Origin: Kiritimatiellia bacterium
GTDB lineage: Bacteria; Verrucomicrobiota; Kiritimatiellia; RFP12; UBA1067
DNA: 64,000 nucleotides
Assembly (NCBI GenBank): GCA_041673345.1
Contig: JBAYXX010000006.1
Span: 5,357 to 69,356 of the forward strand
Direction of reading: 5' to 3'
Of the stretch, positions 2,173 to 64,000 are shown piece after piece. Numbering within the stretch: position 1 is the stretch's first letter; every line of letters starts with the position of its first letter. The translations under genes and the position numbers were made by a program. Below the pieces are notes generated by a model. That model made no database searches. It saw nothing but the letters and a program-made list of their open reading frames with translations, and was not told the origin of the DNA.

Positions 2173-3288
2173 ATGGATACAATTACTTTTCTTAATGGTT
2201 TTGCGCTGCTGAGCTTGATTGGCATGGCTACCTGTTGTGGCTGTTGTACAACTCCTGTAGTCAAGGTCCCGGCTTTCAGCTCAATCAACGAGTACAGTCT
2301 CATAAACTTGAATGGGGTAGAGGTGCGGTTGACCAACTATGGCGCCAGGCTCGTTTCCATCAAGGTGCCAGACCGCAATGGCAAGTTTGCTGACATCCTA
2401 CTCGGACACAACAGCGCCGAGGAGTATATCAACGCCGGGGATCGTCCGTACTTCGGCAGTGTTGTCGGACGCTATGGCAACCGGATTGCTGGAGGCAGAT
2501 TCACATTGGAGGGCAAAGAGTACACTCTTGCGACCAACAATGGTGAGAACCATCTGCATGGTGGCAACATGGGCTATGACAAGCTGGTCTGGGATGCTGC
2601 AGTCAGCAACAGCAGCGTGATCTTCTCCCTGACCTCCTATGATGGGCAGGAGGGTTATCCCGGCGAGCTGAAGATCAAGGTGACATACACCTTGACAGAA
2701 GCGAATGAGCTGAAGATCTTTTATCAGGCAACGACAGACAAGGCAACACCGATCAATCTAACCAACCACGCCTACTTTAACCTTGCTGACGAAGGCGCAC
2801 CAACCATTCTGGAGCATGAACTGATGCTCAATGCCGACACATTCACCCCAGTGGATGCAACCCTCATCCCGACCGGCGAATTTCGGCCAGTGAAAGGCAC
2901 CCCATTTGATTTCACCACTGCCAAAGCGATTGGGCGGGATATTGCGCAAAAGGACACCCAGCTCGAGTATGGCAACGGCTATGATCACAACTTTGTGCTG
3001 AACAAGGGGGTAAGCGACCTAGCATTGGCGGCAACTCTGTATGAGCCCAAGAGCGGGCGCTGTATGGAGACCTTTACTGAGGAGCCGGGAGTGCAGTTTT
3101 ACAGCGGCAACTTCCTGACCGGCTGCCTGACAGGCAAATCCGGCAAAAAGTATCCCTTTCGCAGTGGACTCTGTCTTGAGACCCAGCACTTTCCTGATAG
3201 CCCGAACCAGAAGAATTTTCCATCGACAATCCTGAGGCCCGGGGAGAAGTACCAGACCACCACAGTGTATAAGTTCTCGATCAGGTGA
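2173..3288 (+). CDS. galM: Aldose 1-epimerase (galactose mutarotase), probably exported
   Basis: 371 aa. Mutarotase signatures NGENHLHGG, LTNHAYFNL and GLCLETQHFPDSPN. Hydrophobic Cys-rich N-terminus LLSLIGMATCCGCC. SD aggag upstream of the ATG. Confidence 0.9.
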   Translation: MDTITFLNGFALLSLIGMATCCGCCTTPVVKVPAFSSINEYSLINLNGVEVRLTNYGARLVSIKVPDRNGKFADILLGHNSAEEYINAGDRPYFGSVVGRYGNRIAGGRFTLEGKEYTLATNNGENHLHGGNMGYDKLVWDAAVSNSSVIFSLTSYDGQEGYPGELKIKVTYTLTEANELKIFYQATTDKATPINLTNHAYFNLADEGAPTILEHELMLNADTFTPVDATLIPTGEFRPVKGTPFDFTTAKAIGRDIAQKDTQLEYGNGYDHNFVLNKGVSDLALAATLYEPKSGRCMETFTEEPGVQFYSGNFLTGCLTGKSGKKYPFRSGLCLETQHFPDSPNQKNFPSTILRPGEKYQTTTVYKFSIR

Positions 3289-3995
3289 GGTAACCTGTGT
3301 TTCTGTTTGATTAATTGTTCTTTCCAAAGGGCAAGACAAACATGCTGGTCCTTAAAAATATGTTGTCGACGGGCTAATCCTAATCGCCATCTTAATCTCA
3401 ATCCTTATCTCTTTAGACCGGCCACAGGCGGACGTTGTTGGATTAAGATTATGATTAGGGTTGTGATTAGGATTAGGATTAGGGTTTTCTAGGGACAGGC
3501 ACTGATTTTCTCCTAGGGCGCGCCTTTCACGAGCCTGGAGCAAAATGCCGCTCGTAGAGCGGCTACTACACCAAACGACAACCCTTACACTCCGCAATGC
3601 AGCGCATGTGTAGTAGTCGCTCTACTAGCGACATCGGCCGACGATGGTGTGCGACGATGTTGATGGACGATTGGGATCATGCGGAAAATCGTCCACCAGC
3701 ATCGTCGCCGCCATCGTAAACCGGAGGCACTGCTGACCTTAGTAGCACCGGTTTCCAACCGGACAGTCCGATTAGAAATCGGACCTACAATGAAGTACCT
3801 CAAGCTTCCAGCTTGAATGAAAATGTTTTCTGTAAGCAAGATGCTTGCACTACTCCATTATCACTTTTACAGTAACGTCTCAATAACCCGCTTCGAAACA
3901 GCCTAAAGGCTGGACAACAAGCCTTACGTAGCAGCCGTTTGTTGTTCACGCTTCAGCGTGCTCTTTGTTCTCTGACTCGTCATTGAGAATTTACC
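3289..3995. repeat. Mosaic intergenic repeat block R2
   Basis: Contains modules A (3608-3720) and C (3745-3790), the gcaagcaag..tcacttttacagtaac.tctcaataacccgctt module (3826-3900, also at 5706-5770), and the ttggaaagaacaattaat module in reverse (3302-3330). Confidence 0.85.
3374..3486. repeat. Imperfect long hairpin made of (NNAATC)n and (GATTNN)n hexamer arms
   Basis: Left arm is ctaatcctaatcgccatcttaatctcaatccttatc (3374-3409). Right arm is gattaagattatgattagggttgtgattaggattaggattaggg (3441-3484). It lies 86 nt after the galM stop. Confidence 0.85.
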
Positions 3996-4499
3996 TTAGT
4001 TAGCTTCAATGCGCTTGACCTCTGATCTCTCGGGCAGTGCTGCCAGGAGTGTTGCCACAGTCGCGGTTTGTCCGGGAACAATGAACTTTGGGTTCAACTC
4101 TGCCAGAGGCTGTAGAACAAAACGACGCAGGTGTGCGCGAGGATGCGGAAGGGTCAGATTGGAGTCAGAGCTGATGATATTGTCGAAGGTGATAATATCA
4201 ATGTCAATGGTTCGCGGCTGATTGGGTGTTTGTCTGACTCGTAGGAGCTGCTCTTCAATTTGATGCACGGCATTTGAAAACTGCTGGGAGGTGAGTTCGG
4301 TTTCAATGATTAACACCGCATTGATAAAGGCCTTGTTTCGGTGCTCGGCGGCAACCTCTACCGGCTCGCTTTCATACAGCGATGAACAGCGTTTCAGCTT
4401 TGTTTTAGGCAGAGCGGCCAGGGCTTGCACGGCTTGGGCGAGCCAGCCTTTGCGGTCACCGAGATTGCTGCCAATTGAGAGAATTGCGGTGTGTGGCAT
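3996..4499 (-). CDS. folK: 2-amino-4-hydroxy-6-hydroxymethyldihydropteridine diphosphokinase (HPPK)
   Basis: 167 aa. HPPK motifs SIGSNLGDR, RTIDIDII and LTLPHPRAHLRRFVL. Confidence 0.9.
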   Translation of the reverse strand: MPHTAILSIGSNLGDRKGWLAQAVQALAALPKTKLKRCSSLYESEPVEVAAEHRNKAFINAVLIIETELTSQQFSNAVHQIEEQLLRVRQTPNQPRTIDIDIITFDNIISSDSNLTLPHPRAHLRRFVLQPLAELNPKFIVPGQTATVATLLAALPERSEVKRIEAN

Positions 4500-4801
4500 T
4501 GCTTTGCTCTGTAAATGACTGTCTATAACTTGATCACCTGGTTATGGTTCGTCTCTGCAACTCGGGGGCGCATCTGTGAATTGGTGCATATTACCGGATA
4601 ACCTTCGAAGTCACTGTTGTCCACCGCATAGCGGAGGACATACTTATATTGCAACCAAAGTAAATCCGCCGTTACACGGTGGATTATTGCGCCGATTCGC
4701 AGGTGCGCCCGGATGGCGGTAATACCTTGTCTCGAACCTTGTCTCTTTCGCCCATCCCAGATCATCGCTGCTTGATTAGGATTACGATTAACAGTTAACA
4801 A

Positions 4802-5611
4802 TTAGATAGCCTCAAACCCGAGCACATGCCGCATGGTATAGATGCCCGGGTGGCGGCTGGCAAGCCAGATGGCAGCGCGCAGGGCTCCTTTGGCAAAGGC
4901 TTTACGTGAGACGGCTTTGTGGGTGATTTCGACACGCTCCTCATCGGCCACAAACATTACAGTATGGTCGCCCACCACCGAACCGCCGCGCAGAGCGTGG
5001 ATCGCGATCTCACCCGAGGGGCGCTCGCCGGTGATACCCTCACGTCCGTAGCAGACCACCTCTGAGAGGTTGACCTCGCGCCCCTGCGCCACTGCCTCAG
5101 CCAGCCCCAGAGCGGTTCCGCTGGGAGCATCCTTCTTGTGTTTGTGGTGCATCTCGACGATCTCGGCATCATAGTCATCCCCCAAAACAGAGGCTGATCG
5201 GCGCACCAGCTCCAGCAATAGGTTGATTCCCAAACTCATGTTGGGCGCCCAGACCACTGCGATATGCGCGGATGCGTCCACAACCGACTGCTTCTCCTGC
5301 TCAGTGAGCCCTGTGGTTCCAAGAACATAACCCTGCTTAAACCTCCGTGCATTGGCTAGGTTGGCCGTGACACAGGTGTGGAAGGTGAAGTCAATGATTA
5401 CCTCCGCACTCTCCGGCCACTCCGTGGTATACGTCAAGGTGCCTGGCACTGCGTCGGAGCTGATATTGGTAAACGCCTTAACAGTTTGGCCAACGGCGGG
5501 GTGGTCAACACGTTCGCAGGCCGCGACAATTTCACAACCGCTGACCGCTCCCGCGCACTCCAGCAGGTTGTATCCCATCCGTCCAGCGGCACCTAGTATA
5601 GCGATTTTCAT
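4802..5611 (-). CDS. dapB: 4-hydroxy-tetrahydrodipicolinate reductase
   Basis: MKIAILGAAGRMG dinucleotide fold and EMHHKHKKDAPSGTA motif. I moved the start to ATG 5611 because the sequence from 5619 upward is a dispersed repeat that also occurs reversed at 45155-45230. Confidence 0.9.
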   Translation of the reverse strand: MKIAILGAAGRMGYNLLECAGAVSGCEIVAACERVDHPAVGQTVKAFTNISSDAVPGTLTYTTEWPESAEVIIDFTFHTCVTANLANARRFKQGYVLGTTGLTEQEKQSVVDASAHIAVVWAPNMSLGINLLLELVRRSASVLGDDYDAEIVEMHHKHKKDAPSGTALGLAEAVAQGREVNLSEVVCYGREGITGERPSGEIAIHALRGGSVVGDHTVMFVADEERVEITHKAVSRKAFAKGALRAAIWLASRHPGIYTMRHVLGFEAI

Positions 5612-18714: not shown

Positions 18715-20448
18715 CTAAGCCTTGATCGCCTCTTGCATACGCGCAATAAATTGGTCAACGCTCATCGCCCCTTCATCACCGCTTTCGCGGCTACGCACCG
18801 AGACCACGCCTTCATCCACATCCCGTTGACCGACAATCAGCATAAAAGGGATCTTAGCCAGTTGACCTTTGCGTATCTTGGCCCCAAGTTTCTCGTTATC
18901 CGCATCAACGGAAACGCGTATCTCAGCGTCCCGCAGCTTCAATTCAACTGCACGTGCGTAGTCGAGAAATTTTTCCGAGATAGGCAATATCCGTACCTGC
19001 TCCGGTGCCAGCCAGGGCGGGAAGGCACCAGCATAATGCTCAATCAGGATACCGAAGAAACGCTCCAAACTTCCTAGCAAGGCGCGATGCACCATATAAG
19101 GCTGATGCTCTTTGTTATCCTCACCGGTATAGGTCAGATCAAATCGCTCTGGCAGATTAAAGTCAAACTGCACTGTGCTGAGCTGCCAGGGGCGCCCCAG
19201 CGCATCTTTGATCTTTAAATCGATCTTGGGTCCATAAAAGGCGCCGCCCCCCTCATCCACCGTATATGGGATGGATTCAGCCTGCAATGCGGCCTCCAGT
19301 GAGCGGGTCGCCTGCTCCCAACGTTCCAGCGGCCCCACCGCCTTCTCGGGGCGGGTTGATAAATACGCTGTGACATCGTTGAATCCAAACCGCCCCAGAA
19401 TACGCAGGGCGAATTTTACTGTGCTGCGGACCTCGTCCTCAATCTGCTCTGGGGTGCAAAAAATATGCGCGTCATCCTGCGTGAAGCCCCGAACACGCAA
19501 CAAGCCATGACGCACACCCTCTTTCTCATAGCGGTAGACTGTTCCCAGCTCCGCCCAGCGCAGCGGCAGGTCACGGTAGGAGTAGCGTCGTGTCTTATAA
19601 ATTTGAATATGGAAGGGACAATTCATGGGGCGCACGTAATATTCATCAACCCTGCCATGCGTTTCCTCCCCCTCGGCCACTTTCATGCTGGGAAACATGC
19701 CCTCGCGGTAAAAGCCAAGATGCCCGGAGGTCTCCCAGAGCTGTGCCTTGCCTACGTGGGGGGTGAAAATCATCTCATAACCAGCGCGGAAGTGCTCTCT
19801 ACGCCAAAAGTCTTCAATCTGAATCCGGATGCGCGCGCCTTTCGGATGCCAGTGCGCCAGTCCTGGGCCGACCTCTTCGCTGATGCTGTAAAGCTCCAGC
19901 TCTTTGCCGAGCCGACGATGATCGCGCTTTTTGGCCTCTTCAATCTGCTGCAGCCGCTCTTTGAGAGCCTCAAAGGAGATATCGGCCATGCCGTAAAGGC
20001 GTTGAAGCATCGGATTATTTTCATCACCTCGGAAATAGGAGCCAGCGACCGAGATCAGCTTGACAGCACCGATATCTGAGCTTTTCGCCACATGCGGACC
20101 ACGGCACAGATCCACAAACTCTCCGCAGCGGTAGAGCGATATAACCTCATCTTCCGGAATGTCGCCTAGGCGCTCCAGTTTATAGGGTTGCTCTTTGAAG
20201 AGTTCACAGGCCTTATCGCGGGTCATCTCAAGCCGTTCAAAAGGCAGGGCAGCACTGATAAGCTTCCGTATCTCCTTTTCGATGCGTTTAAAATCGTCTG
20301 GCGAGAGCCTGTGATCTAGATCAAAATCATAGTAAAAACCATCCTCAGTTGAGGGGCCAATGTCCAATTTAACATTGTCAAAAAGCTTACAAACAGCTGC
20401 TGCCATCACATGCGCCGCGCTGTGGCGCATTATTTCCATTGAATACAC
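18715..20448 (-). CDS. thrS: Threonine--tRNA ligase (short form without the N-terminal TGS domain)
   Basis: Class II aaRS. RHSAAHVMA editing-domain motif at residue 8, FTQDDAHIF, QLSTVQFDFNLPERF. 577 aa; GTG start 5 nt after ggagg. Confidence 0.9.
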   Translation of the reverse strand: MYSMEIMRHSAAHVMAAAVCKLFDNVKLDIGPSTEDGFYYDFDLDHRLSPDDFKRIEKEIRKLISAALPFERLEMTRDKACELFKEQPYKLERLGDIPEDEVISLYRCGEFVDLCRGPHVAKSSDIGAVKLISVAGSYFRGDENNPMLQRLYGMADISFEALKERLQQIEEAKKRDHRRLGKELELYSISEEVGPGLAHWHPKGARIRIQIEDFWRREHFRAGYEMIFTPHVGKAQLWETSGHLGFYREGMFPSMKVAEGEETHGRVDEYYVRPMNCPFHIQIYKTRRYSYRDLPLRWAELGTVYRYEKEGVRHGLLRVRGFTQDDAHIFCTPEQIEDEVRSTVKFALRILGRFGFNDVTAYLSTRPEKAVGPLERWEQATRSLEAALQAESIPYTVDEGGGAFYGPKIDLKIKDALGRPWQLSTVQFDFNLPERFDLTYTGEDNKEHQPYMVHRALLGSLERFFGILIEHYAGAFPPWLAPEQVRILPISEKFLDYARAVELKLRDAEIRVSVDADNEKLGAKIRKGQLAKIPFMLIVGQRDVDEGVVSVRSRESGDEGAMSVDQFIARMQEAIKA

Positions 20449-21354
20449 TCAAGCCTCCAAAAAGGATAATCTAATAAAAACACTCGAAAATCACAGGTCG
20501 AGATGGTTATAGAGTACATGTATTAAGGCCTGATTGTCAAGGGGATTGAGCGGCAATCTTAAACTCTGTTGAATTGTAATATGAAATGCGACAACACATT
20601 GGAGAAAGGAAAAGCCACATGGAACAGCTGAATATTAGCACAAGCCAAAAAGTTGTTTCTCGAACGTTTATAGGCGTTTAGTGTAGTAGTCGCTCTATGA
20701 GAGATAAAAAAATTGGTTGCGGCTTTGCCGCGCTAGACCCTCTGTGGCTAATTTTTTTAACGCGTATACACGTTCCGAATAATAAATGAGGGTATGACAG
20801 ACGCTCTCTCCGACAAAGTTCAAGACAAAGTTCGTGCCAAAGCTGACCTATTGCCCGGGGTCGGGGTCGCTATCGGAATCGGTATCGAAAAACGCGTAAA
20901 AACGACCCCGATGCCGACTCCGACCCCGACTCCGAGTGGCATGGCAGCACCTATCCACGCCGCATTCTCAATTTTTCATCTGCCAGGGAAATATCCTAAG
21001 GAGAGATGGGGAGTTGTCAAGCACAATGAAGTTTGTCGCATTTAACGTTGCAATCCCACCAGCAGCCCTCGGATCCGGGGCCGAAATCGGAGTCAACATC
21101 GGGTAATGCCTACCACATTTTACCCATCAAGCTCCCGGCGCAGCATCGCCGTAACCACCTTTCAACACCGGGGAGTTCGCTGCGTTATTTTGAGGTAAAA
21201 ATCCTAGAGGCGAACCTCTTAAACTCATTCCCAAAAACGCATAGCGTTTGTTACTAAAGCAGCGGGCTCTCAACCATGCAACTCTTAATAAGGGCGCAGA
21301 ACTTTCGCACACTGCACAAACTCAATTTAGTTGTAACGGAACGCTGCTTTAGCG
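20449..21354. repeat. Mosaic intergenic repeat block R7
   Basis: gtgtagtagtcgctctatgag at 20684-20704. Inverted (tcgNNN)n arms at 20857-20888 and 20903-20935. tttgtcgcatttaacgttgcaatcc at 21033-21060. Module ccaaacgcatagcgtttgttactaaagcagcgggctc at 21228-21270. Confidence 0.8.
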
Positions 21355-22755
21355 TTAAACATTCTCAAAGCGGTCACCAGGTGCGGGCGCGTCGACGTTC
21401 TGAACTCCGTGTTGTCGTACCAACGTTTGCATGGCGGTCACTTTGTCGAGCTCGCCATGAATGGCGAACACATGCGAAAGGTTATCTTTGACACCGTCAA
21501 ACCAGTGCATCAAAGCGGTACGGTCAGCATGCGCTGAGAGGGCGTTAATCGTATGCACGCGCGCATTCAAGGAATACTCTTCACCGAAGATTTTGAGTGG
21601 GTTGACCCTGTTCACAATCCTGCGTCCCAGGGTATGCTCCGCCTGATACCCCACAATCAAAACAATGTTACGGGGATCGCCGACAGCATGTTTAAGATGA
21701 TGAACAACCCGCCCGCCTTCGCACATGCCAGAGGCGGAGATAATCACCAGCGGGCCCTTGACATCATTCAAAGCACGCGACTCATCAGCTGTTTTCAAAA
21801 ACCGAAGATCAGGGAATTTCATAGGATCCTGACCTTGCCGCAGGATATCAGAGGCTTCGTCATCGTAGCACTCACGATGCTTGGCGTAGATTTTAGTTGC
21901 ATTGAGCGACAAAGGACTGTCAACGTAAACAGGCGTGGGCGGCATACGTCCCTCGTCGTGAAGCCGATTAAAATAGTAGAGAATCTGCTGAGTGCGCCCC
22001 ACACTGAAAGCAGGTATGATCAACCGCGAATGCTGCTGGTGAATATCTTCAATAAACCCCTTTAAGCGCCCTTTTACATCCTCATGCGAGGGGTGATCCC
22101 TGTCAGCGTAAGTACTCTCAATCAAAAGGATATCCGCCCCTTGCGGCATGTCGTAATTTTTAAGGATCGGCTGATCCGGCTGCCCCAAATCACCAGTAAA
22201 TAAAAGGCGGCGACTCCTTGAACCGGACTCTTTGACATCCAGTTGGGTCAGTGCGGAACCAAGGATATGGCCCGCTGTATGAAACACAAAAGAGACACCC
22301 TCCCCAAGATCAACCTGCCGTTTGAGAGGCTCGGGTTGAAATTGCTTCATAATGCGAATCACATCCTGCTCTTCGTAGAGCGGCTCAAAAAGGTTTTTAC
22401 CCAATTGCGCCCGCTTTTTATTCACATACTCAAGATCACGGTTTTGGAGGTAGGCCGAGTCACGCAGCAGAATTTCACATAAATCGCGCGTAGCTGGCGT
22501 GCAGTAGACCTTGCCCTTAAACCCATTGCGAGCCAAGGTCGGCAGATTGCCGCAATGGTCAATATGCGCATGCGAAAGGATCACCGCGTCAATGGTGCGC
22601 GGGTCGATCGCCATATCCCTGTTTTTATGAAAAGCCTCTTTGCGGTGGCCTTGGTAGAGTCCACAGTCCAGCAGGATGCGCAACCCGTTGGCTTCAATCA
22701 GATGCATTGAACCAGTGGTGGTTTGCGCGGCTCCATGAAAATTGATATTGATCAT
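21355..22755 (-). CDS. MBL-fold beta-CASP ribonuclease (RNA-metabolising metallo-beta-lactamase)
   Basis: SHAHIDHCG (HxHxDH) motif and a beta-CASP plus RNA-specificity C-terminal region. Start set at ATG 22755 (MININFHGAAQTTTGS) with gaggaa SD. The 61 upstream codons in the track look non-coding. Confidence 0.85.
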   Translation of the reverse strand: MININFHGAAQTTTGSMHLIEANGLRILLDCGLYQGHRKEAFHKNRDMAIDPRTIDAVILSHAHIDHCGNLPTLARNGFKGKVYCTPATRDLCEILLRDSAYLQNRDLEYVNKKRAQLGKNLFEPLYEEQDVIRIMKQFQPEPLKRQVDLGEGVSFVFHTAGHILGSALTQLDVKESGSRSRRLLFTGDLGQPDQPILKNYDMPQGADILLIESTYADRDHPSHEDVKGRLKGFIEDIHQQHSRLIIPAFSVGRTQQILYYFNRLHDEGRMPPTPVYVDSPLSLNATKIYAKHRECYDDEASDILRQGQDPMKFPDLRFLKTADESRALNDVKGPLVIISASGMCEGGRVVHHLKHAVGDPRNIVLIVGYQAEHTLGRRIVNRVNPLKIFGEEYSLNARVHTINALSAHADRTALMHWFDGVKDNLSHVFAIHGELDKVTAMQTLVRQHGVQNVDAPAPGDRFENV

Positions 22756-54261: not shown

Positions 54262-54852
54262 GTATATTGTGTACGATTTTAAAAGACACGCATCGACCGG
54301 GGACGAACCCGCCTGTCTGATTCACGAAATCTAAACGCAGATTTTCGCCCCGGCCGAGGCGCTTTAACACCAAACAAATACTCTGGATGCATATTTACAA
54401 TGAATCTACTATAAGGATTTCGACGTGTTAAAGCTAGCGTGTTTTTCATGAAACACAAAAAAAGGAGTGCTACGATGAACATGAATGATTCTATTTTGGT
54501 GGGCCTTGACTGGGCAGACAAGAAGCATGATATCTGTTGGCGCGACATCGACACAGGAGAGACTCAAATAAAGGTCCTTAAACACAGACCTGAACTGATC
54601 AACGAGTGGGTCTGTAACCTGATATCAAGGTATCCGGGAAAGCGTATAGCAGTCTGCTTGGAACAAACTCGAGGGCCTGTCGTCTACGCTTTGATGGGAT
54701 ACGACGCAGTCGATATTTACCCTGTTAACCCGTCGACTATGTCGGACTACAGAAAGGCTTTCAGCCCAAGTGATGCAAAGGATGATCCAGGGGATGCGGC
54801 TTTGATGCTTGAGTTGCTTGAACGTCACCCTGAATCTTTAAAGTTATTGGAT
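54262..54852 (+). mobile_element. IS110-family element remnant: about 210-nt structured 5' non-coding end plus a truncated DEDD recombinase (first ~126 aa only)
   Basis: From ATG 54475: MNMNDSILVGLDWADKKHDICW..IAVCLEQTRGP..DIYPVNPSTMSDYRKAFSPSDAKDDPGDAALMLELL is the IS110 N-terminal DEDD domain. Similarity ends near 54852 and the C-terminal Transposase_20 domain is absent. Confidence 0.8.
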
Positions 54853-54982
54853 GCTTTCCCCTGTCAACGCTTCGCTATCCCCTCGCGGAAGATCAACGCA
54901 TCTGCCTATGCGGCCACGCAGGCAGGCCTGCCTGTGTGCCAGCACAGGCAAAGTGATGTTCTCCCATTTTTTGTTGGCCGAA

Positions 54983-55198
54983 CTATTTTTTCCGATAAAC
55001 ATCTTTACGGTCTTGAATTCTCAGAATTAGAACGGAGTCATCAATAATTACAAAAATCACACAATACTCACCAACTCGGTACTTACGCATACCTGCAAAG
55101 GAACCGCTGAGCACAGGAAAACGCTGCGGGGTATGAACAAGATCCTTATCAATCTTATCCATGATCCTTTTTGCATTATCCTTGCTGATGCGGTCAAT
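54983..55198 (-). pseudogene. RelE/ParE-family toxin remnant (5'-degraded)
   Basis: Minus-strand translation IDRISKDNAKRIMDKIDKDLVHTPQRFPVLSGSFAGMRKYRVGEYCVIFVIIDDSVLILRIQDRKDVYRKK*. There is no in-frame start upstream of the core: a stop lies 10 codons upstream, and a frameshifted ATG ORF (MSEGRLKILFAKNHN*) sits at 55241. Confidence 0.6.
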
Positions 55199-56815: not shown

Positions 56816-57874
56816 ATCTCGTCAACAGACAGTTGAAGATAACGGCGGCGATGCTGGTGGATGAGCTCCCGCATGATCCCAATCGTTCACCAACCTCGTC
56901 GCACAGTATCGGCGGCCGTTGTTTGCCTAGGATTGTGGTTCAGCCCGTGAAAGGTGGGCCCTGGGGTGTAGGGTTGCTTCTATGAAGCAATTAGTTGACA
57001 TCAGGTGTTTGTTTGCCAAAGGCACACCATAGGATTTCATGATCTTTGTTTGGCTCATAGAGCCAACCCTACAGTTTCAACCAGGATGAAGCTTACCAAT
57101 CGCGAGCAAGCCTTGCCGTTCGTGTAGTAGCCGCTCTACTTGTCGGGCATAGTTCCGCCATGCCACGGCGTAGCCCCGCTTGCGGACGAAGCCGGGTTGC
57201 GGGACGACGCCTGTAGAGCGGCATTGGTTGACGATGATGTGCGACTAGTGACACGTCACTAGAAAAAGTCGAAGTTATAGGCAAGTCCGCCGCGCGGCTA
57301 CGCCGCGAAAAAACGATGAGGTAACTCGACAAAATGGGCAGGTTATGGGCAACGTGGGAGGGGCATCCTGCCCCTCGGCAGCCTCAGAGGGGCTGGAAGC
57401 CCCTCCCACGTTAGATAGTGAAATCAGTGTCTGTCCCTAAGTCGTCACTGCAGTGCGTGCCGTAGGGACGCGCCAGCCGAGTGATTAGCAGGTCGAAGCT
57501 GTAGGGCGCGGGCCGTGAACGCGCCGGCGGGTAAAAGTGTGGTGCTTCGTGAGTCGGAACGCTTGACGATTGGTCATAAAAGCACCACCCCGCGGTCACG
57601 GCCCGCGGCTACAGTGCTGCGCAGGACGTAGGTCCGATTTCCAATCGGACATGTCCGGTTGGAAACCGGACCTACAGACGTTCATCGCCGCTATCGTCAA
57701 CCGGAGGCCTGGCCTCGCTGGACAAGGATTGCGATTAAGATTGTGATTAGGATGTGCATCCCTCCTAATCGTAATCCTAATCGCAATCCTAATCAAACAA
57801 CGGTGGTTTTCAGTTATGTGCGACTAGTGACACGTCACTAGAAAAAGTCGAAGCTACAGGCAAGCCCGCCGCAT
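56816..57874. repeat. Mosaic intergenic repeat block R11 (largest; modules A, B, K, D, I, J, C, a GATTNN hairpin and a 55-nt direct repeat pair)
   Basis: Module coordinates are given in the findings. 55-nt direct repeats at 57237-57291 and 57816-57870. Hexamer hairpin at 57727-57794. Confidence 0.9.
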
Positions 57875-58222: not shown

Positions 58223-60589
58223 TTATTCGAAATTGAGTGCAATACCGTCATTTTCTACGACGCAACGTATGCGGCAAGAATCTCTCTTTGATTGAGCTGC
58301 AAGCAAATTGGCCAGCGGCATCTCGATATAACGCTGGATAACCCTGGTCAACTCTCTTGCCCCAAACTCGGCATTGAAACCTTCCGTACACAGGAATTCA
58401 ATCACTTTTTTATCGTATGTCAACGTCACATTGTGCTTCTCTTTTAAAGACAAGGCCAGCATCTCCATCCGTTTCTCAGCGATCTGCTCAACCACTTTAA
58501 TGTCAAGCTGCTCAAAAACAATAACTTCGTCAATCCTGTTGATCATCTCCGGCCTGAAATATTTTTTCAAACCGTCATTTTCTCTTGCAGAACGTGCTGA
58601 GCCATCGGGCGTATTTGCTGCGTTGAATCCCAACGGCTTGCGCTTGGCCGACGGCTCCACCCCAAGATTGGATGTCATGATAAAAATAGCATTTTTTGCA
58701 TCAACGCACCGTCCTTTGGCATCTGTTACGCGTCCATCGTCAAATACTTGGAGAAACAGATCGGCCACTTGAGGATGCGCCTTTTCAATCTCATCTAAAA
58801 GCACAATGGAGTACGGCGCTCTCCGCAAAGCCCCGGTCAGCTGCCCCTCTTCATCGTGTCCGATATAACCTGGCGGTGAGCCGATCAAACGTGCCACATT
58901 GTGCTTTTCCATGTACTCCGACATGTCAAGCCGGATCATGGACTTTTCAGAACCAAAGAGCGCATCCGCGAGAGCCCGCGCCAGCTCGGTCTTACCAACC
59001 CCGGAAGGCCCCATGAAGAGGAATACTCCCAGCGGTCCCCGACGATCAAGCAATGCAGCCTGAGCCAACATAAGCCGATCACACACACTCTTGATTGCAA
59101 CATCCTGCCCAATCACGCGCAGTGCAAGACGATGGCTTAGCCCCTCCATCCTGGAGTTAGAGTCTCTTCGCAACTCATTCGCGATCAGCTCTACAGGTAT
59201 CCCCGTTTTCTCGGACAAGACAGCTGCCACATTTTTTTTGGATACAAGACCACACTCTAAATTCGACTTGTCTCCTTGAATACTCAGACCGGGAATACAG
59301 AGCTGAGCGCAGGCTCGGTCAATCAAATCAATCGCTTTATCAGGCAACCGATGATCTGCATCAAAACGTATTGAAAGATCGACGGCCGCCTCCATCGCGG
59401 CACCCGCAATTGTAACCCCATGATGTTTTTCGAATCTATCTCGCAAGCCCTCAAGAATCTGAAGCGTCTCATCACGACTTGGTTCAGGCACAACGATCTT
59501 CTCGAACCTCCGTGCCAATGCCGGATCTTTCTCGATATGCTTGCGATACTCATCCAGCGTTGTCGCCCCAATACATGCAATTTCCCCGCGTACGAGGACT
59601 GGCTTCAGTAGATTAGCGGCGTCCATGCCACCTTGACGGTCACCTGCTCCAACCAGCATGTGGATCTCATCTATGAAAACAATTAGATCCGGCATTGCCT
59701 TAATCTCTTCCAGCAATCCTTTCATGCGCTCTTCAAACTCACCCCGATACTTGGTCCCTGCCACCAATGCCCCGACACTCAGTTCTATCAGGCGCTTTCC
59801 ATTGAGTACTTTACCGTCCTTACCCTGTGCGATCCTTTGGGCAAGCGCCTCCACAATTGCAGTCTTACCAACCCCCGGCTCACCGATCAGCAGCGGATTA
59901 TTCTTCTTACTTCGCGCCAGGGTCTGGATCACCTGCAAGATCTCTTTGCGGCGCCCAATCACAGGCGGCAATCTTCCCGCCTGCGCCTCAGCGGTTAGAT
60001 CCCGTCCGAACCTTTCGAGCAGCGACTCTGATTGCGCAACTTCCGGGTCATCCGCCTTGGCAGCTGGCAAATTGGGTTTGTCACGCCCGCGCTGACCGAC
60101 AAATGCCCTCATCTTGGCTAAGTCAACACCCTCATCACGCAACACGGAGCATACAAGCGAGGCATCATCAGCGATCAAGGCAACAAACAGCGACCGGGCG
60201 GTCACGGAAGTTTCTTTCAGGGTAACCGCGATATTCTCGGCATCGCAAAAGACCTTCTTGGTCAGCTCAGCACGATGAATCACGCCCTCTCGCTCGGACA
60301 CCCATTCAAACACGCCTTTGCCAAGTTTACCCCTGACAGCCCGCCGCAGTTTGGCAGGGCTTATGCCCGCATCTTCAACCGCGTCAGGACCCGATCGCAA
60401 CTCAGCGGCAAGCGCCTCGACATCCACACCCCGCCCACGCAGCTCTTCCAGCGCCTGGTTGCCTGTGAAATCCTTTCCCCGCATAGCCGCCTCGAACAGA
60501 TGTTCCGGCTCGATCTTCTCATGATGTGACGCAATTGCTTCCTTGACTGCCATGCTCCACAACACATTTACTGCCAATGACAATTTCAT
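58223..60589 (-). CDS. ClpA/ClpC-type double AAA+ unfoldase (Clp_N repeats, D1, D2, no coiled-coil M-domain)
   Basis: 788 aa. Walker A/B in D1: [15 protein letters not shown] and [13 protein letters not shown]. Walker A/B in D2: [15 protein letters not shown] and [12 protein letters not shown]1 runs directly into D2 after [20 protein letters not shown] sits at the position of the ClpP-docking loop. Confidence 0.85.
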
Positions 60590-60605
60590 CTGTTAACTCC
60601 CTCAC

Positions 60606-61376
60606 TCATAACCCCAAATTCCACACCACAGCCGTCACATTATCCGGCGCACCGTACTCTACCGCCAGGCTCACCAACTTACGGCAAGCATCCTCCGGAC
60701 GGTCCTGCTCCAACAACGTTGCCGCAATCTCGCCATCTTTAACAACACCCCACAAGCCATCTGTACAGAGCAACAGCCTGTCCCCATCTTTGATTCCTAT
60801 TGTTTGCAACCCGCAATACACATCCCCCGGCATTCCCACAAACCGCGTCAGTTGCCCGCGTGCCGGATGCTTCTCCGCCTCTTCTTCCGTGATCTCGCCG
60901 CTACGCACCAGCAGCGCCACAATCGAATGGTCCGCAGTCAACTTTCGTAACCTGCCGCCCCGTAATAGATACGCCCGGCTGTCGCCCTGGTGGGCTACAT
61001 GGAGAACCTCGCCACACTGCCAGGCCGCAACCATTGTCGTGCCCATGCCCTTGCGTTTTGGATCATCCTCACTCACCCGCAGAATCTCCCGGCTGACCGC
61101 CAAAACCGTTTCGCGTAATAACCGCCGCGCCGAGCGCCGCTTCGGAACCACACCAGCCACTCCCTTCCGCAAAAACTCCGGCAAGCACTCTGTAGCCATC
61201 TGCGCCGCCTCTGCGCCCGCAGGTCGACCACCCATGCCATCGGCAACCACAACAAGCCGGAGCAACTCATCAGCCATCCACGCATCCTGGTTATCGGCCC
61301 GGATACACCCCCTGTCGCTAATCCCGGCGACATCAAAGGGAGTTGCAAATACACTCTGTTGCTGCGTTACGTTCAT
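60606..61376 (-). CDS. PP2C-family Ser/Thr protein phosphatase
   Basis: GISDRGCIRADNQDA, VVADGMGG, GTTMV, HQGDSRAYL, LLLCTDGLW, DNVTAVV. The start overlaps the kinase stop (ATGA). Confidence 0.88.
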   Translation of the reverse strand: MNVTQQQSVFATPFDVAGISDRGCIRADNQDAWMADELLRLVVVADGMGGRPAGAEAAQMATECLPEFLRKGVAGVVPKRRSARRLLRETVLAVSREILRVSEDDPKRKGMGTTMVAAWQCGEVLHVAHQGDSRAYLLRGGRLRKLTADHSIVALLVRSGEITEEEAEKHPARGQLTRFVGMPGDVYCGLQTIGIKDGDRLLLCTDGLWGVVKDGEIAATLLEQDRPEDACRKLVSLAVEYGAPDNVTAVVWNLGL

Positions 61377-62752
61377 ACGCTGATATTCCTCATTGCATCC
61401 AGCATCTCCTGAGCACTTTGATAGCGATCTTTCGGCATCGACTGGATCGCTCGGTCGATCACCCCTGCAAGTGCCATCGGGATCTGCGGATCACGTTTGC
61501 GGATTGGAATAATCTCCCCTCGCAAGACCACCTCCATCGGGTCGGCACCACGCGGGAAATCCCGTGGCAATTTACCTGTCAGCAGATTATACGCAGTCGC
61601 CCCGAAGCTCCAGACATCCGTCACAGGTTTCACATACTTAAAATTCGTGATCTGTTCCTTAGGCATGAATACCGGCGTGCCCGCAAAGGCACCAGTCACC
61701 GTCATCCCGCTGAAACCCGCCTTGTCAAAGTTTTTAGCCAGTCCGAGATCGGAAATTTTTGATACAGGCCTTTCCGGTTTCCCTGTCAGTAAAATATTCG
61801 CAGGTTTCAGGTCTCGATGTACAATCCCCTGCGAGTGAGCGTAAGCCAACCCTTCCAGAGCCTGCCGAAGGATAGGCAAAGCAGCTTTAGCGGAGAGCTT
61901 GCCCCCATGCGCAGCCATATAATCGGATAAACTCCCGCCGGGACAATATTCCATTACAAAATAAAACGCGCCCCCCGCCGAACCCGACGAGATCAACGAC
62001 ACAATGTTATCGTGTCTGAGCGCCTCAAGCAGCTTCACCTCCTGTGTAAATTTGAGCCGTGAAGGTTCATCCACCGCCACCCTTGAAAGCATAACCTTGA
62101 TTGCAACAAGATGGCCATCCACTTCACGCTCAGCCAGATAAACCGCGCCAAAGCCGCCAATGCCCAACCGCCTGCCGATCCTGTAGCCAGCCACCGCAGG
62201 TTTGTCGCCTTTCGCTTTCGGTGTGCCACCTGCCTTTGCCGCCTGCTCCTTGGCCAGCAGCTCCAGCAACGCCGCCGCTGGATCAATCTGAATGCTCTGG
62301 CGACACGCAAGGCAGATGTACGCACCACCTCTGCGTCCGCCAGCCTCATCCCCGACATCCTTGCCGCAGCGCGAGCAGCACAACGGACCTTTGGCAGCCG
62401 CTGCGATAATCTTGACAGCCAGTTTTGTCTGCCCAACCGCAAGCGTATCTCCATCCTTCAGATCCACCTCGGCATACTTCCGCTGCTGGCCCTGCTCCGG
62501 TGTCTCACCCTTCTCACGGCTCCCGATCTTCTTTCCGTTTACATGCGTTCCATTCAGGCTCCCGAAATCCTTGATCCGGGCATCCGGCGGATTCACCTCC
62601 ACAATGAAATGTCGCCGCGAAACCTGCCCGTCATCCCACAGACAACAGTGGCACTCCGCAGCTCGCCCGAAAATGAACGTATCATGCTCGATAAAGTCGA
62701 ACGCTTTACCTTTCATCGGCCCTGAGGTCACACGCAAACTGACTGAATTCAT
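61373..62752 (-). CDS. Ser/Thr protein kinase with an N-terminal FHA domain and a central CxxC..CxxC zinc ribbon
   Basis: FHA: FIFGRAAECHCCLWDDGQVSRRHF..GSLNGTHVNGKKI. Ribbon: CSRCG..CLACR. Kinase: GIGGFGAVYLA, VAIKVM, HRDLKPANIL, SDLGLAK. Confidence 0.88.
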   Translation of the reverse strand: MNSVSLRVTSGPMKGKAFDFIEHDTFIFGRAAECHCCLWDDGQVSRRHFIVEVNPPDARIKDFGSLNGTHVNGKKIGSREKGETPEQGQQRKYAEVDLKDGDTLAVGQTKLAVKIIAAAAKGPLCCSRCGKDVGDEAGGRRGGAYICLACRQSIQIDPAAALLELLAKEQAAKAGGTPKAKGDKPAVAGYRIGRRLGIGGFGAVYLAEREVDGHLVAIKVMLSRVAVDEPSRLKFTQEVKLLEALRHDNIVSLISSGSAGGAFYFVMEYCPGGSLSDYMAAHGGKLSAKAALPILRQALEGLAYAHSQGIVHRDLKPANILLTGKPERPVSKISDLGLAKNFDKAGFSGMTVTGAFAGTPVFMPKEQITNFKYVKPVTDVWSFGATAYNLLTGKLPRDFPRGADPMEVVLRGEIIPIRKRDPQIPMALAGVIDRAIQSMPKDRYQSAQEMLDAMRNISV

Positions 62753-62850
62753 GACAGCACTCCTTCTCTGGATAGAAATTGTTCGATATGTTGACAGGCA
62801 TCCAACGCCTGACGGAACGCGCCCGGGTCCACATAGGCCCTTTTTTTCAT
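62749..62850 (-). pseudogene. 33-codon stub of an AbiEii-type nucleotidyltransferase toxin gene
   Basis: MKKRAYVDPGAFRQALDACQHIEQFLSREGVLS*. The D-P-x-A-F-R-Q-A-L-(D/E) opening matches my recollection of AbiEii N-termini. Its ATG overlaps the AbiEi stop (ATGA) and its TGA overlaps the kinase ATG (ATGA). Confidence 0.55.
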
Positions 62851-63440
62851 TTTCGTCTCCAGGCTGTCATGAGGTTCTTGAGTTCCACGCATTGCGGATG
62901 CCGTTCGAATTCGGCAAGGGTGATCAGCCCGGAATCGAGCCCCTGTCCCAGCGCCTGCCGCAGATGCTCCTTTGAGACCGAGGCATCTGCCAGCAGATCA
63001 GCCACCGCCCTCAGCGGACGTGTCACTCGGTAGCCGCGCCGTTCCTCACAATCTTCATGCGCAAGGTAGCCCCGGTGAAGCACGAGAATGTCTGGTATCG
63101 GAGCATTGCGACGAAAGCTCAGAGGAACCGTCATGTGAAGTTGTTTCGGCATCAGGTCGGAAAGCTCGAAAAGCGCCAGTGCGGTCTGATGCGAATAAAC
63201 GCCCTGCGGCACGCCCTGCCGATTGCGCGACCACAGCGTCCAAAGAACATACTGCGCGTCGTCTGACATCGGGAACCTCACAAGACGATAAATGCCCCTG
63301 TATTCCCGCTGCCAGCTCCCGGCTTTGCGGTGATAAACATGGCTGGATGTCGGATAGCCGCACGCCACCGCCTGTGCAGCCGTAAAAAAACCCTGCTGCC
63401 GCTCGGCGATCATATAGAGCTTATCTTCTTTTCGTGTCAT
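62847..63440 (-). CDS. AbiEi-family (type IV TA antitoxin-like) wHTH transcriptional regulator
   Basis: KLYMIAERQQGFFTAAQAVACGYPTSSHVYHRKAGSWQREYRGIYRLVRFP is the AbiEi_4 N-terminal wHTH pattern. Start set at ATG 63440. Confidence 0.75.
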   Translation of the reverse strand: MTRKEDKLYMIAERQQGFFTAAQAVACGYPTSSHVYHRKAGSWQREYRGIYRLVRFPMSDDAQYVLWTLWSRNRQGVPQGVYSHQTALALFELSDLMPKQLHMTVPLSFRRNAPIPDILVLHRGYLAHEDCEERRGYRVTRPLRAVADLLADASVSKEHLRQALGQGLDSGLITLAEFERHPQCVELKNLMTAWRRK

Positions 63441-63554
63441 AGTTCCCCGTTTCAGATATGCACACATAGTACATTATTTATAGCTTTTGTGCAATACCTC
63501 AACGAATCGTCTTCATCCGCCCACTAAATAAGTCAAAAGCAAACGCCAGTCGTG

Positions 63555-64000
63555 TTACAATACACCGTCGAGATTCGCCTGCGCCCATCTCATCACATTT
63601 TGCAAATCCGAACGCCCCGTGCGTTCGCTCTCAGCGCTTACCCCGGCGAAGGCGGCTTGCGCACGTTGGCAGTCGGCAAAAGAAAGGGACCCCATGCCGT
63701 GTAAAATCACGGCGCGGTAGAGTTCGTTCTTCATCATATCACCGAATAGGTCGCTGCGCCCTTCCTGCTCCACCAGCCGCCGAAGAATCACAATATTTTG
63801 GTCGCACAGCGCCACAGATCCGAGATTGTCGCCCAAAGCTCTGAATGCGACAGCCTTGTTCATGTAAACCATAGCCAAATCATAGGCCAGTTCGCAACGG
63901 CCTTCCTGATTGACCAACCGCTCCAGAATCGTAGTCGCATAATCAAAGAGCGCCACCGCTCCACGATTGTCGCCCAAAGCACTAGCTGCGACAGCCTTGT
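63555..64000 (-). CDS. Tetratricopeptide-repeat protein, C-terminal part only (gene continues past the window end)
   Basis: Repeating ~40-aa units: ..AVALFDYATTILERLVNQEGRCELAYDLAMVYMNKAVAFRALGDN.. and ..SVALCDQNIVILRRLVEQEGRSDL... The ORF is open to position 64000. Confidence 0.7.
   Translation of the reverse strand, partial: KAVAASALGDNRGAVALFDYATTILERLVNQEGRCELAYDLAMVYMNKAVAFRALGDNLGSVALCDQNIVILRRLVEQEGRSDLFGDMMKNELYRAVILHGMGSLSFADCQRAQAAFAGVSAESERTGRSDLQNVMRWAQANLDGVL

Follow-up and report, generated by a model that had tools for sequence, protein, structure and literature searches.

The window analysed here, a 64,000-nucleotide stretch of a Kiritimatiellia bacterium (GenBank assembly GCA_041673345.1, contig JBAYXX010000006.1, positions 5,357 to 69,356), carries near its end a run of five consecutive minus-strand reading frames. 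These encode an AbiEi-type winged helix-turn-helix (wHTH) protein, a remnant of the partner toxin AbiEii, a Hanks-type serine/threonine kinase (STK) with a forkhead-associated (FHA) domain and a zinc ribbon, a PP2C phosphatase and a two-ring Clp/Hsp100 unfoldase (Table 1). A sequence-only reading had proposed that the five form a single operon in which a kinase-phosphatase-unfoldase triad has taken the place of the toxin. All five frames were recovered where that reading had put them, using the open reading frame (ORF) list and the sequence, and so were the three stop/start overlaps of the type ATGA and the 16-nt spacer with its GGGAG motif; the overlaps were confirmed by reading the DNA of the run. 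The frames are beyond chance: they are long, have strong family matches and possess conserved orthologues.

Conservation and make-up of the kinase-PP2C-Clp triad

The family of FHA-zinc-ribbon-kinases counts more than 4000 homologues, and the module has a patchy distribution over the phyla represented, which are Verrucomicrobiota, Lentisphaerota, Kiritimatiellota, Planctomycetota, Acidobacteriota, Actinomycetota, Chloroflexota, Desulfobacterota and Bacillota. At least 120 FHA-kinase clusters were recovered at 52-100% identity, around half of them at 65% or more, and most stem from metagenomes of the Planctomycetota-Verrucomicrobiota-Chlamydiota (PVC) group. A total of 163 loci of homologues was fetched (L-numbers; P-numbers denote their proteins). 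The genes for kinase, PP2C and Clp follow each other in the same order in every relative of at least 65% identity with enough flanking sequence (L001/L005, L002/3, L006, L087, L088, L092-L096 and L125). At greater distance, members of the same Clp subfamily accompany an FHA-STK in shuffled gene orders in Dehalococcoidia (L014), Terrimicrobiaceae (L018), Streptomyces (L022, L044) and metagenomic sequences (L099, L101, L112, L114). The identities of kinase and Clp to the window proteins are strongly correlated (Spearman 0.90, n=19, related loci included).

Clp was present in 3 of the 28 kinase loci at 40-50% identity and in none of the 19 below 40%, and PP2C and extra kinases are commoner partners than Clp below 50% kinase identity. 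Viewed from the side of the unfoldase, all eight sampled Clp homologues at 47-56% identity, which came from Thermodesulfobacteriota, Chloroflexota, a deltaproteobacterial metagenome-assembled genome (MAG) and unassigned MAGs or metagenomes, are encoded no more than two genes away from a Hanks kinase. Six of the eight have a kinase with tetratricopeptide repeats (STK-TPR) as this neighbour; in L153 and L160 the genes touch or overlap. The gene-neighbourhood search thus bore out the proposed co-occurrence of the triad, both in the close relatives and in the kinase linkage of distant Clp proteins. Given that the three genes are conserved together, appear to co-evolve and encode proteins that look catalytically intact, the notion that they constitute one conserved, co-evolving functional module is supported.

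The kinase protein is matched by the Pfam models Pkinase (3e-49) and FHA (6.5e-12). Invariant within the family are the VAIK lysine (K219), the HRDLKPxN residues D314, K316 and N319, D335-x-G and the activation-loop residues T351 and T353, and within the FHA domain G29-R30, S45-R46-x-H48 and N67-G-T; the phosphothreonine-binding residues are kept. Considering the conserved HRD motif and T351-x-T353, the enzyme is expected to require phosphorylation of its activation loop. The AlphaFold2 (AF2) model of the kinase has a pLDDT (predicted local distance difference test) of 76. The phosphatase is matched by PP2C_2 (5e-15) and by the Stp1/IreP-type model NF033484 (2.7e-65; 220 bits against a cut-off of 230), and in most loci it holds the +1 position relative to the kinase. 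As all of its metal-binding and catalytic motifs are kept (RADNQD, DGMGG, GTT, GDSR, TDGL and DNVT), it is predicted to be catalytically intact. The domain assignments made earlier for both proteins were therefore confirmed, with intact catalytic motifs.

The Clp protein belongs to a distinct subfamily of 780-800 residues. It contains the domains Clp_N, AAA, AAA_lid_9, AAA_2 and ClpB_D2-small (Pfam/NCBIfam), arranged as an all-alpha N-domain (residues 1-170), D1 and D2, and the M-domain is absent. Its NCBIfam scores lie under the equivalog cut-offs for ClpB (738 bits against 1232), ClpA (689 against 993) and TssH (645 against 885). The best sequence match in the PDB is ClpC of B. subtilis (1e-177), and the best Foldseek matches of the AF2 model are ClpC/ClpC1. 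The Walker A and B motifs of both rings and the pore loops KYRG and GYIG are invariant in the family; among 13 members compared for the ClpP-docking tripeptide, G654 is invariant and F655 nearly so. At the place of the M-domain around 16 residues follow the D1 lid, versus around 60 in B. subtilis ClpC. This place is short and variable across the whole subfamily, and the AF2 model has a disordered loop (430-447) there instead of a coiled coil. Sequence and predicted structure thus identify the protein as ClpC-like, with apparently intact ATPase motifs and without the repressive M-domain. The M-domain of ClpC keeps the enzyme inactive at rest, and its mutation or deletion yields constitutively active forms with ClpP-dependent toxicity (PMC5699869). 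A ClpC-like protein with a ClpP loop and no M-domain would need some other control, and we infer that the linked kinases and phosphatase supply it. A phospho-binding pocket, argued from the Glu in 'IEPEH', was rejected, as this motif belongs to the general structure of Clp_N repeats and the second repeat lacks its Glu.

Some homologues have additional domains. An extra zinc ribbon ('CCQCGVSIPEKDRDKFRWIGGTYICATCKAKI') is inserted in the planctomycete FHA-kinases P0108 and P0120, and a close counterpart ('CCECGCAIADEERSKCAWIGGMFICVKCKAKV') forms the C-terminus of the Clp homologue P0179 (L157 9001-11577), which may point to a shared ligand or to homotypic contact. In P0237 (L158 9001-11937), another member of the Clp subfamily, an N-terminal nucleotide cyclase (PF00211) replaces Clp_N; its gene adjoins those for an STK-TPR, Phd/YefM, CopG and a PtuA/OLD-like ATPase.

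Table 1. Positions of the features of the locus within the window
Feature	Position	Strand	Description
AbiEi	63440..62847	minus	A-type wHTH antitoxin/autoregulator, full length, 197 aa
Alternative AbiEi ATG	63467	minus	read from ORF list
AbiEii remnant	62850..62749	minus	33 codons, ATGA overlap at each end
FHA-zinc-ribbon-Hanks kinase	62752..61373	minus	459 aa
FHA domain	62752-62399	minus	residues 1-118 (Pfam)
Cys4 zinc ribbon	62377-62303	minus	C126/C129/C147/C150, four Cys invariant in the family
RD-type Hanks kinase domain	62185-61388	minus	residues 190-455 (Pfam)
PP2C Ser/Thr phosphatase	61376..60606	minus	256 aa
Spacer before the Clp ATG	60605..60590	minus	16 nt, GGGAG Shine-Dalgarno (gtgaGGGAGttaacag), sequence reading
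Two-ring Clp/Hsp100 unfoldase	60589..58223	minus	788 aa
ClpP-docking LGF tripeptide	58633-58625	minus	residues 653-655, aligned to ClpC VGF
3' end of STK-TPR gene	63555..64000	minus	last ~146 codons, TPR repeats, tblastn to relatives
Candidate sigma-70-like promoter	63473..63502	minus	TTGAGG-18-AATAAT, motif scan, weak
IS110 N-terminal fragment	54439-55047		downstream of Clp, confirmed
ParE fragment	54983-55162		downstream of Clp, confirmed

A second kinase and an ECF-like sigma factor

The sequence-only reading had mentioned a TPR protein next to the operon. The repeats are real, but they turned out to be the last 146 residues of an STK-TPR kinase, a module partner that had been missed. In tblastn, window positions 63558-63998 match residues 644-789 of the 790 residues of the L096 STK-TPR (68% identity) and residues 683-829 of the 829 of its L001 counterpart (63%), in both cases up to the stop codon, and the fragment clusters with the STK-TPR proteins of the relatives. 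These orthologues combine Pkinase with TPR, and their catalytic loop, G[LV][IV]HQDVKPxN, is of the non-RD type. By homology, the window fragment represents the C-terminal end of a second kinase, non-RD and of the 'HQD' kind, whose kinase domain lies beyond the window edge. The HQD kinases form an orthologous group with TPR or WD40 repeats and accompany the FHA-STK in close and distant loci; the pairs that consist of Clp and a kinase only use another STK-TPR type, 'RCHRD'. Judged by gene context, STK-TPR is the most conserved partner of the module.

Upstream of the HQD kinase a protein of around 245 residues (fam5) is encoded in at least 11 loci (L001 2594-3328, L093 1946-2710, L002 6152-6892 and L157 1889-2677, and further L006, L029, L034, L051, L086, L095 and L108). 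It matches TIGR02937 over nearly the whole profile with values of 2e-10 and 1.4e-8, just below the curated cut-off, and Sigma70_r2 is the top Pfam match in four out of four representatives. These profile matches characterize fam5 as a divergent sigma factor of the extracytoplasmic function (ECF) type, and suggest that a kinase-linked sigma factor of its own belongs to the wider system. Its counterpart here would fall beyond base 64000, outside the window. Membership of ECF43 was set aside, as the sigma2.2 region reads 'DAKDLTQ', without the S/T substitution of ECF43, and the designation 'ECF-like' was kept.

Two further observations concern the genes around these kinases. A 670-aa protein, encoded between the ECF-like sigma factor and the HQD kinase in L093 (3194-5206), L088, L095, L011 and L018 (the latter with two paralogous copies), has no match in Pfam, NCBIfam or PADLOC, and may be a further component. 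In addition, a chaperone theme seems to recur around the module kinases. The C-terminal segment of the L099 partner kinase (1595-5530; kinase-TPR-WD40) resembles an Hsp70 substrate-binding domain as read from the sequence, and an 838-aa Hsp70-family gene (20409-22355) lies in the same cluster as the kinase in L155.

The AbiE cassette and the surroundings of the module

The first frame of the run is matched by AbiEi_4 of Pfam (7.8e-10) and by the PADLOC AbiEi model PDLC02228 (1.2e-64 over residues 9-196), and the protein is 44-51% identical to annotated plasmid AbiEi antitoxins, in line with the earlier assignment of an AbiEi-type wHTH antitoxin at the head of the operon. The start at 63440 agrees with a homologue fragment in L092. 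As a whole, the following short frame has no family match in Pfam, PADLOC or NCBIfam. Its stretches 'KRAYVDPGAFRQALDA' and 'IEQFLSR' resemble the N-termini of AbiEii proteins that partner A-type AbiEi on Deinococcus, Simkania and Thermus plasmids, which read for example 'MRYTTAAAFRRALDD...YERFLARLF', and the Deinococcus AbiEi/AbiEii pair shows the same 4-nt overlap as the window. The motif match thus identifies the frame as a genuine AbiEii N-terminus, as had been claimed, and with the toxin reduced to so few codons AbiE toxin activity cannot occur here. No other AbiEii fragments were found in the window by tblastn with three intact partner toxins. An insertion of the triad into the toxin gene was rejected, since the same search found no AbiEii remainder downstream of Clp, and a deletion is therefore preferred as the origin of the present arrangement.

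The history of the cassette can be read from the clade of loci at 80% identity and above. The gene order there is ECF-like sigma, 670-aa protein, HQD kinase, AbiH, AbiEi, AbiEii (listed as present in some loci only), a spacer of around 74 nt, FHA-STK, PP2C, Clp and PDC-S01. In 10 of the 11 loci, the window included, the triad is immediately preceded by AbiEi, and in L096 another gene takes this position. Three AbiEi variants were discerned: the A-type of the window, which differs from the B-type of the relatives, and two B-type sublineages. A tblastn search with the A-type AbiEi of the window gave no match in most close relatives, and clustering shows that most of them carry the B-type. AbiEii is missing or truncated in most loci of the clade. 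An intact AbiEii of 290 residues is located between AbiEi and the kinase in L092, L095 and L089 (PF08843 3.7e-41 in L092/L095); the gene is wholly gone in L088, L093 and L094, is down to its first and last codons in L001 and is a 72-aa stub in L087. This pattern indicates that AbiEii was lost at least four times independently, by different types of deletion. AbiEi-B is intact in all nine B-type loci, and its ratio of nonsynonymous to synonymous substitutions (dN/dS) of 0.17-0.27, found also between loci without the toxin, identifies it as being under purifying selection. No AbiE was found in the 65% clade (L002, L006) or in any of the distant loci.

A fragment of the window-type AbiEi-A (residues 1-86, 93% identical) is located just upstream of the complete B-type AbiEi/AbiEii pair in L092 (236-529; similarly in L089-L091). 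This juxtaposition indicates turnover, in which AbiE cassettes replace one another at the site upstream of the triad. AbiH occupies the same gap, which marks it as an insertion hot spot. Remnants of the flanking genes of the relatives (PDC-S01, AbiH, fam5 and fam7) were not found in the window.

The conserved spacer of around 74 nt that precedes the FHA-STK in the relatives is absent from the window, where the toxin deletion took it away as well. The candidate promoter listed in Table 1 is the sole minus-strand sigma-70-like match upstream of the operon, and the motif scan found no promoter-like sites on the minus strand between AbiEi and the Clp start. With the spacer removed and the sole site upstream of AbiEi, the triad is here probably transcribed from the AbiEi promoter and subject to AbiEi autorepression, which would be a lineage-specific rewiring. 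Considering the intact AbiEii beside the triad in relatives, the varied deletions, and the lack of AbiE in the 65% clade and the distant loci, the comparison identifies AbiEi as the retained half of an adjacent toxin-antitoxin (TA) module and not as a core component. The proposal that the triad fills the toxin position, taken as a replacement by design, is not supported in view of L092, L095 and L089, in which AbiEi, intact AbiEii and the triad stand together. Control by AbiEi is locally plausible, in view of the purifying selection and the probable co-transcription in the window, but AbiEi is not a defining part of the module.

To describe the surroundings, 162 non-module neighbours from 20 loci were scanned with PADLOC. 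Strong matches were obtained for SoFic (four loci, down to 8e-120), PtuA of Septu (twice, 1.5e-54), PDC-S04, PDC-S24, PDC-S31, AbiE and AbiH; in the close clade the triad is flanked by AbiH, AbiEi/AbiEii and PDC-S01 (1.5e-100). A control with 40 genes from the rest of the window gave two generic matches, to a UvrD-like helicase and a ThiF-like E1. The triad of L002 sits inside an element with a terminase, a single-stranded DNA-binding protein (SSB), PcfJ and a primase, and TA, integrase or mobile-element neighbours were found in L002, L155, L156, L158 and L159. The earlier description of the neighbourhood as accessory is sustained, and the AbiH, AbiE, PDC-S01, SoFic and PtuA neighbours give it a defence-like character; in L160 the context is housekeeping. 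The SoFic-type Fic genes (L099 6556-7674, L155 7162-8172, L156 7811-9010 and L157 11911-13092) lie one to three genes from a kinase-linked Clp in four independent loci, and could be a recurrent accessory component or a mere defence-island neighbour. At the other end of the window, the UvrD-family helicase gene at 3-1382 on the plus strand, which is cut by the window start, matches GajB of PADLOC (1.2e-57); no GajA was seen, and the match is probably that of a generic helicase and not of Gabija.

The IS110 stub and the dead TA genes that had been reported on one side of the operon were both retrieved, as an IS110 N-terminal fragment and a ParE fragment. In the gene-poor stretch of around 3 kb between these fragments and the Clp stop we observed a 69-nt direct repeat (57225-57293 and 57804-57872), the copies of which are 579 nt apart and 88% identical, share an identical 36-nt core and hold the palindrome CTAGTGAC-AC-GTCACTAG. 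The copies bracket three strong hairpins (57351-57412, 57628-57675 and 57725-57790) with arms of 26-28 nt. The repeat has no Rfam match and was not found in any of the fetched loci, and an Rfam scan of 54-64 kb gave nothing credible. A plus-strand ORF antisense to PP2C (60577-61383, 268 aa) was without support and was taken as spurious.

Named systems, proposed function and rival explanations

The PADLOC run left the kinase-PP2C-Clp triad unassigned. The matches of the FHA-kinase to PD-T4-6 and mad6, and of Clp to DolB and PDC-M37B, are generic domain matches (kinase and AAA_2/D2, respectively). The PD-T4-6 hidden Markov model (7.5e-71) covers only the kinase domain (188-457) and matches the partner kinases equally well; the FHA-kinase differs from this single-gene STK system in architecture and operon context. 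The DolB model matches residues 468-647 of Clp D2 only (8e-35), and DolA (DUF6414), a feature of Dodola, was not found in the locus by PADLOC. Full-text searches of the open-access literature retrieved no description of a defence or conflict system that joins a Hanks kinase to a Clp/Hsp100 protein. The claim that the composition matches no described defence system thus held in both sources.

The paired Hanks kinases of the anti-phage system KKP, one of which has an FHA domain, are toxic and restrained by a PP2C that phages inhibit (PMC11341870). Like KKP (PfkA/PfkB/PfpC of Pf prophages), the present module encodes two Hanks kinases, one FHA-bearing, and a PP2C together. Here, the FHA domain is N-terminal and combined with a zinc ribbon, whereas it is C-terminal in KKP. 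The partner is a non-RD HQD kinase with TPR/WD40 repeats, whereas the KKP partner carries a cold-shock domain (CSD); domain scans found no CSD in the proteins of the locus or its relatives. The gene order is kinase-PP2C-Clp instead of PP2C-kinase-kinase, and the ClpC-like unfoldase is an integral and co-evolving part, whereas KKP is prophage-borne in Proteobacteria and lacks an AAA+ protein. A three-gene conflict module of kinase, PP2C and a third effector or adaptor is likewise found in TerY-P (vWA protein TerY, PP2C and Ser/Thr kinase), which was reportedly presented as a defence system by Gao et al. in 2020 and is said to be the 'TerY-phosphorylation triad' of the Aravind lab. Its third part is a vWA protein and not a two-ring Clp, and domain scans of the window operon and related loci found no vWA/TerY. 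Zinc-ribbon-fused kinases with PP2C and vWA have been described (PMC7159879).

The Firmicute ClpC/ClpP-McsA-McsB system similarly has a ClpC-type unfoldase with a ClpP loop beside a kinase and a zinc-binding element, the concept being that the kinase marks substrates for the Clp N-domain. McsB is an arginine kinase, unlike the Hanks kinases found here, and the present Clp lacks the M-domain, which is the MecA site and resting-state element. The McsB context is indeed absent, as had been stated: the kinase is Hanks-type by its Pkinase match, and neither an ATP:guanido phosphotransferase nor a CtsR match was found in the locus (Pfam, NCBIfam). The closest named Clp class is ClpI of Actinomycetota, a phylogenetically distinct, non-housekeeping third double-ring class with an M-domain of ClpC length and a conserved Tyr tip (PMC10149685, Jiang & Schmitz 2023). 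ClpI has no conserved gene neighbours, coexists with ClpB/ClpC and is patchily distributed, ClpIa bears LGF, and such extra unfoldases have been read as expanded quality control (PMC10149685). The window subfamily may likewise be an extra type of two-ring Clp; it has LGF and a patchy distribution, but lacks the M-domain and is consistently linked to kinases, in which it differs from ClpI as described. The Streptomyces Clp proteins of L022 and L044, with around 40% identity to that of the window, are encoded directly upstream of an FHA-STK and have no insert of M-domain length.

[quoted passage not shown] There the FHA protein stands alone, whereas here it is fused to the kinase, and the Clp stays well below the TssH cut-off given above. 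ClpV is generally without a ClpP loop (PMC10149685), unlike the window Clp. T6SS structural genes were found neither among the annotated window ORFs nor in any related locus, which agrees with the sequence-only reading. STK-activated ECF sigma factors are a recognised mode of signalling, with stress regulons under their control (PMC7826278, PMC8999054), and systems of the ECF43 type govern resistance to polymyxin and the expression of T6SS (PMC8999054). The relatives resemble these systems (ECF43 EcfP/PknT and EcfK/PknS; ECF59-62, 217, 267 and 283) in the ECF-like sigma next to a sensor kinase and in the lack of an evident anti-sigma factor beside it, and differ in that their sigma is divergent, scores below the curated cut-offs and lacks the S/T motif of ECF43 in sigma2.2. 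The papers on STK-ECF systems mention no FHA-kinase/PP2C/Clp partners (PMC7826278, PMC8999054). AbiE, finally, is resembled in the intact AbiEi of a recognised subfamily and its canonical 4-nt overlap with the AbiEii start, and is departed from in the reduction of the AbiEii nucleotidyltransferase. The locus is best placed among phosphorylation-based conflict or signalling modules, with an effector of the chaperone type, and lacks defining features of each of the systems compared.

Considering that Clp keeps the ClpP-docking LGF loop, a phosphorylation-gated unfoldase/protease would be the most reasonable reading of the module. Of the earlier proposal, the phosphorylation-gated unfolding or proteolysis is upheld by this loop and the intact catalysis motifs, and the inclusion of AbiEi in the system is not. 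A four-protein phospho-signalling module would control a dedicated ClpC-type unfoldase, and would have been fused by deletion to the AbiEi half of a neighbouring AbiE pair in the lineage of the window. The repeat-bearing HQD kinase would sense a trigger, for which a phage or another mobile element entering the cell is the likeliest candidate, the FHA-kinase would be recruited to, or activated through, phosphothreonine marks, and PP2C would erase basal phosphorylation and so set a threshold. The phosphorylation state would then license Clp with host ClpP, in such a way that phospho-marked targets are unfolded or degraded, or that Clp becomes broadly active; the outcome would be arrested growth, abortive infection or the destruction of the invader's proteins. 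A role in defence is likely; for a defence or abortive-infection module with Clp as the phospho-licensed effector in particular, we consider the chances evenly balanced.

Several points weigh against such a role. The phosphorylation target, the reading of the phospho-mark by the N-domain and the use of ClpP are all inferred, and the second Clp_N repeat lacks a Glu equivalent to E106 of ClpC. Many relatives have an ECF-type sigma gene by the HQD kinase, and an ECF sigma beside a kinase is a hallmark of stress-response signalling; TPR/WD40 kinases, moreover, are abundant in PVC bacteria, myxobacteria, cyanobacteria and actinobacteria for signalling other than defence. Viral contigs, annotated phages and plasmids gave generic kinase-domain matches only and essentially lack the module, at least one locus (L160) lies among ordinary metabolic genes, and no PADLOC system model corresponds to the module. 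Finally, the counts of the promoter and terminator scan were not above those in shuffled sequence, so that they lend weak support to a single transcript.

A number of these points would fit a stress-response or proteostasis module, in which the ECF sigma and STK-TPR sense a signal of envelope, proteotoxic or developmental nature, which is tuned by the FHA-kinase/PP2C pair, and Clp degrades or remodels specific clients (phospho-degron quality control), with the Abi and TA genes as passengers in a variable region. We regard this as possible, if somewhat unlikely. In 11 or more loci the HQD kinase is immediately preceded by the ECF-like sigma, and STK-activated ECF sigmas are known to control stress regulons (PMC7826278, PMC8999054), as ClpI-type extra unfoldases have been taken for quality control (PMC10149685). 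The housekeeping surroundings of L160 and partly of L153, the Hsp70-type elements in L155 and in the C-terminus of the L099 kinase, and the failure to find the module on phages and plasmids point the same way. Defence and TA genes, however, adjoin the module repeatedly in independent loci of different phyla while the control was clean, the L002 module resides inside a mobile element, the patchy distribution with shuffled gene order is reminiscent of horizontal gene transfer, and one would expect a ClpC that has a ClpP loop but no M-domain to be hazardous rather than a routine chaperone.

A smaller chance is given to a KKP-like arrangement in which a kinase toxin and a phosphatase antitoxin are the real effector and Clp assists, for instance by degrading the PP2C antitoxin or a phage inhibitor upon a trigger. 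KKP kinases are indeed toxic and held in check by PP2C (PMC11341870). In many loci FHA-STK and PP2C, with or without a second kinase, occur without Clp. Classical TA logic, furthermore, uses Lon/Clp to clear labile antitoxins. The N-terminal FHA domain, the zinc ribbon in place of a CSD kinase and the different gene order nevertheless argue against it, as does the kinase linkage of Clp (8/8), which persists without FHA-STK and PP2C and makes Clp and STK-TPR a core pair in themselves. Least probable, and in our view very doubtful, is a chimeric AbiE-derived system, with AbiEi as dedicated regulator or antitoxin and the triad replacing AbiEii as effector. Such a chimera would account for the position of AbiEi directly upstream of the triad in nearly the whole 80% clade, for the missing or truncated AbiEii in most of it, for the intact AbiEi-B with a dN/dS of about 0.2 even between toxin-less loci, and for the ATGA coupling and the loss of the triad's own spacer in the window. 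It is hard to reconcile with the three loci that hold an intact AbiEii between AbiEi and the triad, which show that the triad is no toxin substitute, and the four or more unrelated toxin deletions are typical of TA decay with the antitoxin kept. Neither the 65% clade (L002, L006) nor the distant Clp-kinase loci have AbiE, L096 has a different upstream gene, AbiH in the same gap points to an insertion hot spot, and nothing suggests that the AbiEi C-terminal domain neutralises kinase or Clp.

Extended further, the defence reading leads to a new immune class, in which a non-RD sensor kinase with TPR/WD40 repeats would detect the invader, and this kinase and a thresholded FHA-kinase/PP2C switch would direct an M-domain-less Clp with host ClpP to degrade phospho-marked phage or host proteins; we consider this unlikely as a whole. 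An ECF sigma of its own may be part of the wiring of this class, and in one PVC lineage an orphan AbiEi repressor may have taken control of it. If true, it would be the first defence system with a Clp unfoldase as effector, and also the first case of a Clp protease served by a phospho-Ser/Thr degron pathway; to our knowledge, the phospho-arginine of McsB is the only established phospho-degron for Clp. The mechanism, if it holds, would join Hanks-kinase/FHA/PP2C signalling with regulated AAA+ proteolysis, fields that have not been joined in bacteria, would offer a testable Clp protease under phospho-Ser/Thr control, and would add a protein-unfolding effector to the anti-phage repertoire. The repeated loss of AbiEii with a selected AbiEi kept is by itself a clean natural case of antitoxin survival, and possibly of co-option as a regulator. 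The distribution of homologues indicates that the module is real and widespread. The extra Clp unfoldases recently named in actinomycetes may gain a genomic context from it, and a function found here would annotate many of the thousands of homologues that are labelled only 'ATP-dependent Clp protease ATP-binding subunit' or 'protein kinase'.

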